A DNA stretch of 40,582 nucleotides from a virus (IMGVR_UViG_2778261692_000003:1-40582); one strand, 5' to 3'; shown: positions 38,088 to 40,582, numbered from the stretch's first letter. Made by a program: numbers and translations. Notes: a model not told the origin generated them from the letters alone.

Positions 38088-38112
38088 AACTCGCTACGGC
38101 GAGTTTTGTTTT
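38088..38112 (+). terminator. Intrinsic terminator (second of a tandem pair)
   Basis: AACTCGC-TACG-GCGAGTT followed by TTGTTTT. Confidence 0.7.
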
Positions 38113-38125
38113 ATGGAGACAAGAA

Positions 38126-38470
38126 ATGTCAGATTTGGCTATGAAGGTTTTGAAATGGCAATCAACTGGCGATGTCGGCATCAGTAGCGCAACTCTTGCC
38201 TCAATCGCATGTGGCCTGAAAAAGAATATCTATGGTCATGGCTTCGGTGCTCCACATGACGCAGCCGATTTCAGACGATGCGTTGCACTTGTTGAGCAGA
38301 TTCCAGAAATCAGAGATTCATTCGACAAGGTTGCAAAGCGCGTTCCGGCATTCAAAGGAATCCTCAACGAATGGGATTCCCTCGTTGCTCTGTTGAAGTC
38401 TGAAATGAAGATACACGGAAACAAAGCACCAAAAACTTACAGAAGAATCAGCGAGCTACGCAAGGACTAA
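38126..38470 (+). CDS. Hypothetical protein (114 aa) insulated by terminators on both sides
   Basis: GGAGA lies upstream of the ATG. Two terminators precede it and two hairpins follow it. No recognisable motif. Confidence 0.65.
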   Translation: MSDLAMKVLKWQSTGDVGISSATLASIACGLKKNIYGHGFGAPHDAADFRRCVALVEQIPEIRDSFDKVAKRVPAFKGILNEWDSLVALLKSEMKIHGNKAPKTYRRISELRKD

Positions 38471-38538
38471 CCATGAAATAACACAGCCTCACACTCGATG
38501 AGGCCTGTTCATTTCTCAAGATATCCAGACCTATCATC

Positions 38539-38562
38539 GCCGCATCAATGCGGCTTTTTATT
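38539..38562 (+). terminator. Intrinsic terminator upstream of torI
   Basis: GCCGCA-TCAA-TGCGGC followed by TTTTTATT. A weaker hairpin lies at 38486-38504. Confidence 0.8.
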
Positions 38563-38569
38563 GCCTGAT

Positions 38570-38585
38570 TTGCAGGTTCGATTCC
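38570..38585 (+). repeat. 16-bp fragment identical to the argW tRNA T-stem/T-loop
   Basis: TTGCAGGTTCGATTCC equals the argW segment immediately 5' of the attR core sequence, from my recollection of argW. No acceptor or anticodon arm is adjacent, so it is not a tRNA gene. Confidence 0.6.
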
Positions 38586-38604
38586 CTATTCGGAGATAGC
38601 ACTC

Positions 38605-38805
38605 ATGCAACACGAACTACAACCTGATTCACTGGTTGATTTGAAATTCATCATGGCTGATACTGGCTTCGGTAAGACCTTCATCTATGACCGGATTAAG
38701 TCCGGAGACCTGCCTAAAGCCAAAGTTATCCACGGACGAGCAAGATGGTTATATCGTGACCATTGTGAATTCAAAAATAAGCTCTTAAGCCGCGCTAATG
38801 GGTAA
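38605..38805 (+). CDS. torI: Excisionase / recombination directionality factor TorI (AlpA/Xis family)
   Basis: 66 aa: MQHELQPDSLVDLKFIMADTGFGKTFIYDRIKSGDLPKAKVIHGRARWLYRDHCEFKNKLLSRANG. This matches my recollection of E. coli TorI. GGAG lies 9 nt upstream. Confidence 0.93.
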   Translation: MQHELQPDSLVDLKFIMADTGFGKTFIYDRIKSGDLPKAKVIHGRARWLYRDHCEFKNKLLSRANG

Positions 38806-38876
38806 AATAGCGGGTAAAATATTTCTCACATCTAAAAAATATCATTCCAATCAATCCCCTGCCGCGCCAAGTAGAT

Positions 38877-38891
38877 GTCTGCAGGGGACAC
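38877..38891 (+). other. attR core (copy of the argW 3' end)
   Basis: CTGCAGGGGACACCA is the 3' T-stem strand plus acceptor strand plus CCA of argW. It lies 71 bp after torI. A tandem GGGTAAAATA x2 at 38800-38821 lies in the arm and may be a protein-binding site. Confidence 0.8.
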
Positions 38892-39281
38892 CAGATACCC
38901 TTCAAACGAAATCTACCTTCACCCCGTAAAAGATGGGTTTGGCAGCACACTTGCCTTATATCTACTCATTTTTACTGCAACAGGTTGAAATCTCAGCACT
39001 GTCAGAAAGCGCTGATGACTAAACAGCCCTGAGCCGGGCGATGTAACCATCACACAGAATCCTGATAGCGAAATATGGCGTGACTCGATACTTCACTCCG
39101 CAATGCATTCCTTGATGAATTCGCAGGACCGTGATACACGGGACAGGTCACTGAATGACGACAATGTCCTGGAAATCAGCGAACCGCGCATCTGAAGTAC
39201 ATTTGAGCGACTGTACCAGAACATGAATGAGGCGTTTGGATTAGGCGATTATTAGCAGGGCTAAGCATTTTACTATTATTA

Positions 39282-39325
39282 TTTTCCGGTTGAGGGATAT
39301 AGAGCTATCGACAACAACCGGAAAA
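39282..39325. other. Long hairpin downstream of cscB
   Basis: TTTTCCGGTTG ... CAACCGGAAAA forms an 11-bp stem with a 22-nt loop. There is no clean U-run on either strand, so terminator function is uncertain. Confidence 0.35.
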
Positions 39326-39334
39326 AGTTTACGT

Positions 39335-40582
39335 CTATATTGCTGAAGGTACAGGCGTTTCCATAACTATTTGCTCGCGTTTTTTACTCAAGAAGAAAAT
39401 GCCAAATAGCAACATCAGGCAGACAATACCCGAAATTGCGAAGAAAACTGTCTGGTAGCCTGCGTGGTCAAAGAGTATCCCAGTCGGCGTTGAAAGCAGC
39501 ACAATCCCAAGCGAACTGGCAATTTGAAAACCAATCAGAAAGATCGTCGACGACAGGCGCTTATCAAAGTTTGCCACGCTGTATTTGAAGACGGATATGA
39601 CACAAAGTGGAACCTCAATGGCATGTAACAACTTCACTAATGAAATAATCCAGGGGTTAACGAACAGCGCGCAGGAAAGGATACGCAACGCCATAATCAC
39701 AACTCCGATAAGTAATGCATTTTTTGGCCCTACCCGATTCACAAAGAAAGGAATAATCGCCATGCACAGCGCTTCGAGTACCACCTGGAATGAGTTGAGA
39801 TAACCATACAGGCGCGTTCCTACATCGTGTGATTCGAATAAACCTGCATAAAAGACAGGAAAAAGTTGTTGATCAAAAATGTTATAGAAAGACCACGTCC
39901 CCACAATAAATATGACGAAAACCCAGAAGTTTCGATCCTTGAAAACTGCGATAAAATCCTCTTTTTTTACCCCTCCCGCATCTGCCGCTACGCACTGGTG
40001 ATCCTTATCTTTAAAACGCATGTTGATCATCATAAATACAGCGCCAAATAGCGAGACCAACCAGAAGTTGATATGGGGACTGATACTAAAAAATATGCCG
40101 GCAAAGAACGCGCCAATAGCATAGCCAAAAGATCCCCAGGCGCGCGCTGTTCCATATTCGAAATGAAAATTTCGCGCCATTTTTTCGGTGAAGCTATCAA
40201 GCAAACCGCATCCCGCCAGATACCCCAAGCCAAAAAATAGCGCCCCCAGAATTAGACCTACAGAAAAATTGCTTTGCAGTAACGGTTCATAAACGTAAAT
40301 CATAAACGGTCCGGTCAAGACCAGGATGAAACTCATACACCAGATGAGCGGTTTCTTCAGACCGAGTTTATCCTGAACGATGCCGTAGAACATCATAAAT
40401 AGAATGCTGGTAAACTGGTTGACCGAATAAAGTGTACCTAATTCCGTCCCTGTCAACCCTAGATGTCCTTTCAGCCAAATAGCGTATAACGACCACCACA
40501 GCGACCAGGAAATAAAAAAGAGAAATGAGTAACTGGATGCAAAACGATAGTACGCATTTCTGAATGGAATATTCAGTGCCAT
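39335..40582 (-). CDS. cscB: Sucrose:H+ symporter CscB (oligosaccharide/H+ symporter, LacY family)
   Basis: 415-aa 12-TM MFS protein. MALNIPFRNAYYRFASSYSFLFFISWSLWWSLYAIWLKGHLGL matches E. coli CscB as I remember it. The start codon lies at the window edge. The csc locus is known to sit next to argW. Confidence 0.93.
   Translation of the reverse strand: MALNIPFRNAYYRFASSYSFLFFISWSLWWSLYAIWLKGHLGLTGTELGTLYSVNQFTSILFMMFYGIVQDKLGLKKPLIWCMSFILVLTGPFMIYVYEPLLQSNFSVGLILGALFFGLGYLAGCGLLDSFTEKMARNFHFEYGTARAWGSFGYAIGAFFAGIFFSISPHINFWLVSLFGAVFMMINMRFKDKDHQCVAADAGGVKKEDFIAVFKDRNFWVFVIFIVGTWSFYNIFDQQLFPVFYAGLFESHDVGTRLYGYLNSFQVVLEALCMAIIPFFVNRVGPKNALLIGVVIMALRILSCALFVNPWIISLVKLLHAIEVPLCVISVFKYSVANFDKRLSSTIFLIGFQIASSLGIVLLSTPTGILFDHAGYQTVFFAISGIVCLMLLFGIFFLSKKREQIVMETPVPSAI

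Follow-up and report, generated by a model that had tools for sequence, protein, structure and literature searches.

The prophage KplE1 and the phages HK620 and Sf6 provide the reference modules with attP placed between int and xis, and their att sites have been footprinted in detail. In KplE1 the duplicated core is 16 nt long (CTGCAGGGGACACCAT), the arm-type sites are built around TAAA (the motif that was mutated to study them), and intS is transcribed from its own promoter, PintS, which lies in attL (Panis et al. 2010, PMC2951348). The same arm carries five sites for the excisionase TorI (I1–I5), with GTTCG, GTCCG or GATCG as their cores; TorI, like IntS, represses PintS by way of att sites, I4 and I5 being the TorI sites involved (PMC2951348). 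The two proteins interact in solution, and a 135-bp attR with its left primer in the 3' end of torI suffices for excision in vitro (PMC3509656). In HK620, the sequence record (AF335538, Clark et al.) places a promoter named pI, for 'phage integration', at 605–643 with a cII-binding site at 606–618, and the Sf6 record calls the same region pI and marks a 'boundary sequence' there. Both annotations are predictions. In other phages, RDFs are known to regulate their own operon, as do P4 Vis, 186 Apl and P2 Cox. Vis, for example, represses P4 Pint (PMC7286903).

Here we describe a conserved element upstream of torI in a viral sequence of 40,582 nt, which we refer to as the window (the whole stretch of DNA analysed). 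The window is a complete argW prophage, running from the intS start codon (intS 1–1158) to the host gene cscB.

A second copy of the argW T-arm upstream of torI

A copy of the argW T-arm, 13–16 bases long, lies just 5' of torI and is a real feature of the locus (Table 1). The 16-mer to which the earlier note had drawn attention, TTGCAGGTTCGATTCC, is exact and unique in the window and ends 19 nt before the torI ATG, as that note had stated. It covers the end of the variable loop, the 5' strand of the T-stem, the T-loop and the first two bases of the T-stem 3' strand. After its final CC the sequence runs on without a T-stem continuation, unlike a tRNA gene or pseudogene, and ARAGORN found no tRNA gene or cloverleaf in the window. 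The argW sequence given in the earlier note turns out to be correct: in L001, an unoccupied argW–cscB site whose downstream flank is identical to that of the window, the gene reads ...GGGCTAATTGCAGGTTCGATTCCTGCAGGGGACACCAgataccc. On this gene the fragment corresponds to positions 46–61 and the attR core to positions 61–75, so that the two pieces do rejoin with an overlap of 1 nt.

Table 1. Positions of the features discussed in the text, counted from the first nucleotide of the window.
Feature	Position	Strand	Remarks
Remnant of the eaC-end/xis-start region (mosaic joint)	38464–38533	+	~91% identity to P22, ST64T and others
Intrinsic terminator, GCCGCAT-CA-ATGCGGC plus T-run	38539–38562	+	closes the early-left operon
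TTGC-N5-TTGC	38561–38573	+	HK620 cII-binding site of the pI promoter
16-mer of the earlier note, TTGCAGGTTCGATTCC	38570–38585	+	argW positions 46–61
T-loop box, CAGGTTCGATTYCC	38573–38586	+	conserved alignment block, 14 nt
torI Shine-Dalgarno sequence, GGAG	38592–38595	+	CGGAG or TGGAG kept in orthologues
torI (excisionase/RDF gene)	38605–38805	+	66 aa, identical to K-12 TorI
Two tandem GGGTAAAATA repeats, P arm	38800–38821	+	candidate IntS arm-type sites, TAAA motif
P-arm side of the core, putative C half-site, AGTAGATGT	38870–38878	+	decayed E. coli T-loop remnant
attR core, CTGCAGGGGACACCA	38879–38893	+	argW positions 61–75; bacterial DNA from 38894
cscB	39335–40582	−	host gene, right end of the window

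The match is not a coincidence. The number of 16-nt matches to any part of argW expected in the window, both strands included, is 0.0011, and this figure together with the exact and unique match rules out chance; in 200 shuffles the longest argW match was mostly 10–12 nt, and 16 nt was reached in one shuffle. The fragment is also present in KplE1 of the K-12 type (L002) and in HK620, and Sf6 matches the same stretch at 96.5% identity. It is kept within E. coli-type modules as well: 75 of 80 IMG/VR loci with identical TorI retain the 16-mer, behind three different upstream terminators. Not all of it need come from the tRNA, however. The match is real over its whole length, but the first four bases, TTGC, may owe nothing to argW, because the second of the TTGC repeats that precede HK022 xis aligns with them. 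The extra TTG that brings the match to 16 nt in E. coli belongs to this TTGC, and the part shared across the family is only CAGG...CC.

The earlier note had read the fragment and the core as a single argW 3' end that was split around the excisionase gene, an ancestral attP with 30 nt of contiguous argW identity having later received the torI cassette. The two pieces do abut in argW with their 1-nt overlap and have the same orientation, as this account demands, but the T-loop homology of the core was never removed. In most lineages (A/T)TTCGATGT-N-TGCAGGGG stands directly left of the core; this remnant differs from the tRNA by two or three changes, and the window keeps only GTAGATGT of it. A tRNA-derived attP that still reaches the T-loop beside the core makes the piece upstream of torI a separate second copy and not half of a split attachment site. 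The segment supposedly inserted would also need to have brought a whole functional P arm, and the TTGC at the start of the fragment aligns with the HK022 repeat. We regard the split as already contradicted by these comparisons, and its probability as very small indeed. The fragment lies 293 nt from the core and is not contiguous with the crossover region. The sequence of the core and its identity with the argW 3' end had been given correctly, but its coordinates (38877–38891) were off by 2 nt. Where a locus continues beyond torI, it nearly always ends in an argW-type core, (C/T/A)TG(C/T)AGGG(G/A)AC(A/G)CCA. A scar of tandem integration was rejected on logic, since the internal junctions left by IntS tandem insertions are attP-like, and an isolated B half-site is never produced.

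Between torI and the core, the tandem GGGTAAAATA repeats lie where they had been described, at 38800–38809 and 38812–38821, and the first overlaps the torI stop codon. Of the two roles proposed for them, Int or RDF binding, they fit that of candidate IntS arm-type sites: they contain TAAA and resemble the P' sites GGGTAAAAA and GGATAAAATA of attL, where inverted TTTACCC, present twice, belongs to the same motif family. GCGGGTAAAA is conserved in most orthologues. The P arm also holds CCCCTGC (38856–38862, plus strand), an inverted copy of the core segment GCAGGGG (38881–38887) located 18 nt upstream of it and kept in most lineages. A similar AATCCCCTG follows the core at a distance of about 37 nt in the P' arm of attL (L160, ~1021–1029). 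Both could be accessory core-type sites or form a hairpin.

The right flank (window 38894–40582) is the sucrose permease gene cscB, where K-12 has dsdC, and by this flank the host evidently carries a csc-type argW locus; the best match of the att region among complete E. coli genomes is only 97.9% identical. Directly after the attR core, five loci (L053, L059, L060, L074 and L091) encode another P4-like integrase (MLLSDIQIKRAK...) that brings arm repeats of its own, which indicates that a second island occupies argW in tandem. On the left, the strong terminator mentioned in the earlier note is present, as a hairpin (38539–38554) with its T-run. It is common to lambda/HK022-type phages, as is the ATTGCCTG that follows it, and forms the left boundary of the torI-attP-intS module. 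Homology to HK022/mEp506 ends at about 38567, and KplE1-type homology begins at 38539–38555. Directly 5' of the terminator, upstream of the recombination module, lies the eaC/xis remnant, in a place where P22-like phages annotate xis/eaC. Its identity to P22-like phages marks a joint at which a KplE1-type module evidently replaced a P22- or lambda-type xis-int module. A 33-codon ORF (38498–38599) that spans this joint and the T-arm copy is probably meaningless.

Conservation of the box among TorI modules

To describe the element across the family, we aligned the loci of TorI homologues, using one genome per species (24 loci) together with viral contigs. The conserved block, which we call the box, reads CAGGTTCGATT(C/T)CC and is kept in the E. 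coli, Enterobacter, Citrobacter, Serratia, Pantoea and Edwardsiella modules, with flanks that are wholly different between genera. Over 17 lineages its information content is 1.2–2.0 bits per position, the C/T position having 0.83 bit, and the flanks 5' of it mostly have less than 0.6 bit. Of the 16 non-E. coli lineages, 8 have all 13 of the tRNA-identical bases and 14 have 11 or more. In the same lineages, identity to the window at torI third-codon positions averages 0.56 and the 5' flanks are unalignable. A box kept while its flanks and the third-codon positions (~56% identity) have diverged indicates purifying selection wherever the box is present.

Its placement is constrained as well. The box is always on the torI strand and 4–7 nt before the Shine-Dalgarno sequence, or 12 nt in a Serratia-type lineage (L010 and L134); the distance to the Shine-Dalgarno sequence is thus near-fixed, whereas the distance to upstream elements is variable. 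Tandem copies are found in L126, L127 and L129 (with a period of 17 nt), in L123 (14 nt) and in L008 (~13 nt). The box is missing in L012, where TorI shares 97% identity with the L011 protein, and, among the loci aligned, in the more distant TorI homologues; on this comparison it is dispensable. L012 (2440–2500) is a Dryocola prophage in which the terminator runs straight into the Shine-Dalgarno sequence, with no box. The TorI that its own resembles is that of the Citrobacter-type module, and this prophage is a natural box-deletion control.

The identity between the box and argW stops at position 61, which is the exact start of the attP/attB identity block. We looked for covariation between the box and the local tRNA in three places. 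The Edwardsiella-type argW (L420) has the same T-arm and is uninformative; in L148 the 5' flank of the box, TTACAGG, does not match its TGCAGG-type target; and Proteus, with an argW T-stem of ACAGG/CCTGT, has a TorI-like locus that lacks the box.

IntS and TorI as candidate binders

The box equals the tRNA-side flank of attB, left of the identity block, and is identical over 13–16 nt to the B half-site. In attB an overlap region and the B' partner follow this half-site, whereas the box is followed by neither and lies about 290 bp from the real core; it therefore cannot recombine. From the inverted repeat of attP we derived a model, GATGT-N / TGCAGGG / GACAC, with a putative 7-bp overlap and half-sites of the form GRYGT; this form, common to C and C', would be the best half-site for IntS. 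On this derived model, the GATTC or GATTT of the box matches GRYGT-N at 3 of 5 positions, as B does, which suggests that the box may be a weak half-site like B. No IntS arm-type site was found near the box, and neither the box nor the P4-type element described below fits the IHF consensus by eye. The 135-bp attR that suffices in vitro begins about 200 bp downstream of the fragment (in L002 coordinates), so the box is not needed for strand exchange in vitro.

TorI is the other candidate. As we read them, the TorI sites of K-12 attL are AGTTCGCT, AGTCCGCA, AGTTCGTC, GGTTCGCT and AGATCGTT. The box contains a TorI-type pentamer, GTTCG, at 38576–38580, and its GGTTCGAT matches 7 of the 8 positions of the 8-mer at the fourth attL GTTCG, GGTTCGCT, which we read as I4. 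Like the attL sites, it has this pentamer on the same strand relative to the module and beside the start of a recombination gene. For a closer comparison we derived a position weight matrix from 43 candidate TorI sites, extracted by pentamer pattern from an alignment of nine diverged attL arms of the IntS type. Among these 43, the base after GTTCG is C in 31 and T in 12 and never A or G, and the base before it is A in 31, C in 7, G in 3 and T in 2. In 17 of 17 lineages the pentamer of the box is preceded by G and followed by A, off the flank preferences of attL. The box does not rank among the top 23 positions that the matrix listed for the window and was rejected as a canonical TorI site. The attL candidates stand in arrays, phased at a fixed 10 or 20 bp, and TorI binds such arrays cooperatively; most lineages have one copy of the box, and where it is duplicated the periods, 13–17 nt, do not fit the 10-bp phasing of TorI. 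Conservation covers about 7 nt in the attL sites, as opposed to 14 nt in the box. At best, then, the box would be an atypical TorI site. By analogy with Vis, Apl and Cox, an RDF-type site directly 5' of the RDF gene would give autoregulation; those systems, however, have mapped promoters and arrays of sites, whereas the torI box is a single atypical site with no mapped promoter.

In attL itself, the T-loop of argW supplies a further GTTCG (L160, 961–965), located 31 bp from the pentamer assigned to I1 (992–996) and 51 bp from that of I2 (1012–1016). Because it is roughly in helical phase with both, the tRNA T-loop could be an extra TorI contact.

Elements that resemble the box also occur in other P4-family modules at argW, whose integrases are 31–48% identical to IntS and whose arm-type repeats are different. 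Here GGTTCGAT is flanked by direct and inverted arm-type repeats, 137–139 nt after the tRNA end and 23–51 nt ahead of the int start (attL arms of L161, L177, L185, L189, L249, L257, L262 and L264). The RDF-like phased repeats of these modules are CGTCYA, not GTTCG. At leuX, P4-type modules (L523–L556) have CTTCGATT or AATTCGATC in the same place despite a leuX T-loop that reads TTCGAGT, and the element therefore does not track the target tRNA; ssrA-targeting modules have nothing comparable there. A general role of the box as a 'target mimic' in P4-family arms was rejected for this reason, the TTCGAT element being independent of the target and unusable as support. In addition, the P4-family element precedes int among arm repeats whereas the torI box precedes the RDF gene, and the two may be unrelated.

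Possible roles of the box

We consider a regulatory, co-opted role, one of the possibilities raised in the earlier note, the best reading of the fragment. More specifically, we propose, with a probability of roughly one in three, that the box is an operator through which IntS and/or TorI limits transcription into torI-attP-intS. It sits in the torI leader, after the early-left terminator and within the annotated pI region. IntS, a candidate because the box is the sequence it must recognise left of attB, would bind through its core-binding/catalytic domains; TorI, a candidate because of the GTTCG pentamer, may bind as well or instead. Our confidence is divided between the two, with a slightly larger share for IntS, and either one taken singly is an unlikely binder. 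The bound box would throttle read-through or pI transcription entering the module, and the concentrations of TorI and IntS would thereby stay within narrow limits. The comparisons establish that the box exists, where it lies, that it is identical to the tRNA, that it is conserved and that excision in vitro does without it; we infer that a protein binds it, which protein that is and what its regulatory effect would be. For the operator we count the strong conservation of the box, its fixed orientation and near-fixed spacing to the torI start, its tandem duplications, the end of argW identity at the attP/attB block, the GTTCG, the precedent of PintS repression and the pI/cII context. Against it we count the atypical TorI flanks, the lone site, the weak half-site with no arm-type site near, the position outside the 135-bp attR, the absence from L012 and the lack of a sigma-70-like promoter to regulate. 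In a more specific form of the idea, which we hold to be unlikely, argW phages would keep the box as a mimic of the tRNA side of attB that acts as a sensor or operator: IntS protomers tethered at P-arm sites 215–235 bp away would reach the box, and binding of IntS or TorI would loop out or block torI.

Three other accounts compete with the operator. The position of the box, always on the sense strand and usually 4–7 nt from the Shine-Dalgarno sequence while upstream distances vary, would also suit an RNA leader element in the torI 5' UTR that acts on the translation, processing or stability of a read-through transcript, for example by binding a factor that recognises T-arms or by masking the Shine-Dalgarno sequence. 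The box is probably transcribed, because torI has no convincing promoter of its own. The only frequent variation in the box, C/T, could pair with G53 as G-C or G-U, a change that suits an RNA pair, although mutations of this kind are also the commonest; and in an Edwardsiella/Pantoea subgroup a 6-bp hairpin around the box survives loop mutations in L114. Folding each lineage separately gave no common hairpin, however, and minimum free energies close to those of shuffles (z about 0) in 14 of 17 lineages. Only GG/CC could close the 7-nt loop, and the 5' CAGG is kept without a conserved complement. No Rfam family matched, and no known factor is implicated. A conserved RNA hairpin or known RNA family is not supported, and we think an RNA-level role in general rather unlikely.

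Somewhat less probable is that the box belongs to pI itself, the cII-activated promoter that Clark et al. predicted for HK620, and fills the stretch from the TTGC repeats to the -10. On this account intS would be driven through torI and attP during lysogenisation, and no TorI would be made, the start lying at or after the torI Shine-Dalgarno sequence. The HK620 and Sf6 annotations mark the region (the HK620 promoter corresponds to 38560–38598), and the terminator, the TTGC repeats and the Shine-Dalgarno sequence of an RDF gene follow one another as in the cII-dependent pI region that precedes xis in lambda and HK022. HK022 reads TTGC-GTGTAA-TTGC and then GGAGActttgcgATG(xis), so that the left part of our region aligns with its TTGC-N6-TTGC and following GGAGA; the window reads TTGC-CTGAT-TTGC, then AGGTTCGATTCCCTATTC and then GGAGAtagcactcATG(torI), and thus has 18 extra bases, AGGTTCGATTCCCTATTC, between the second TTGC and the Shine-Dalgarno sequence. 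The KplE1-type module also differs in having int beyond attP. By analogy with the spacing of lambda pRE, pI would start between the Shine-Dalgarno sequence and the torI ATG, about 5 nt short of the latter. With such a start, pI, if real, would serve intS rather than torI. This bears on the promoter that the earlier note had proposed for torI, TTGCAG-17-GAGATA: it coincides with HK620 pI and so is already a published prediction, but it is weak, its hexamers matching the consensus at 3 of 6 and 2 of 6 positions, and it would not serve torI. The torI Shine-Dalgarno sequence lies inside the putative -10, GAGATA (38593–38598). A scan of 38100–39000 returned no passing sigma-70-like promoter, and a sigma-70 promoter at the box was rejected. 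As for torI, it fits the absence of a dedicated promoter that the gene is reportedly expressed from read-through transcripts normally stopped by Rho. Besides the poor hexamers, several points weigh against pI as the reason for the box. The repeats are spaced N5 and not N6 as in lambda and HK022, and they are absent outside E. coli-type modules, where the box is conserved; invariance over 13 nt is not normal for a promoter spacer; and Panis et al. have intS transcribed from its own promoter in attL.

The box could also be a non-functional relic, a piece of argW captured once and hitch-hiking at the module boundary, perhaps through aberrant or illegitimate IntS joining at the left edge of the overlap or through TAATTGC microhomology. 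The end of the identity exactly where the attP/attB block begins would suit the former route, and the occurrence of TAATTGC in both the HK022 xis-upstream region and argW the latter. The box lies within 10–15 nt of the mosaic boundary, where Sf6 has its annotated 'boundary sequence', and L012 does without it. The obstacle is its conservation, which a scar, an origin that the earlier note had also suggested, leaves unexplained: neutral retention of 13 bases has a probability of 0.56^13, about 5e-4, per lineage, the lineages not being fully independent. We consider a relic less probable again than pI.

We found neither a description of the box nor binding data for it in the accessible literature. 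If the box were inert, it would merely be an old tRNA scar at a mosaic boundary. If it serves as a mimic of attB, the synthesis of excisionase would be coupled to the occupancy state of the recombination proteins, which would add a new regulatory layer to a textbook-grade model (KplE1, HK620 and Sf6), and the TTCGAT elements in other P4-family int leaders would then point to a general principle. And if, in the wider operator reading, the box binds IntS or TorI, a feedback on the excisionase would be added to the known feedback on intS, and a 5-bp mutation would offer a simple handle on how the stability of lysogeny is set.
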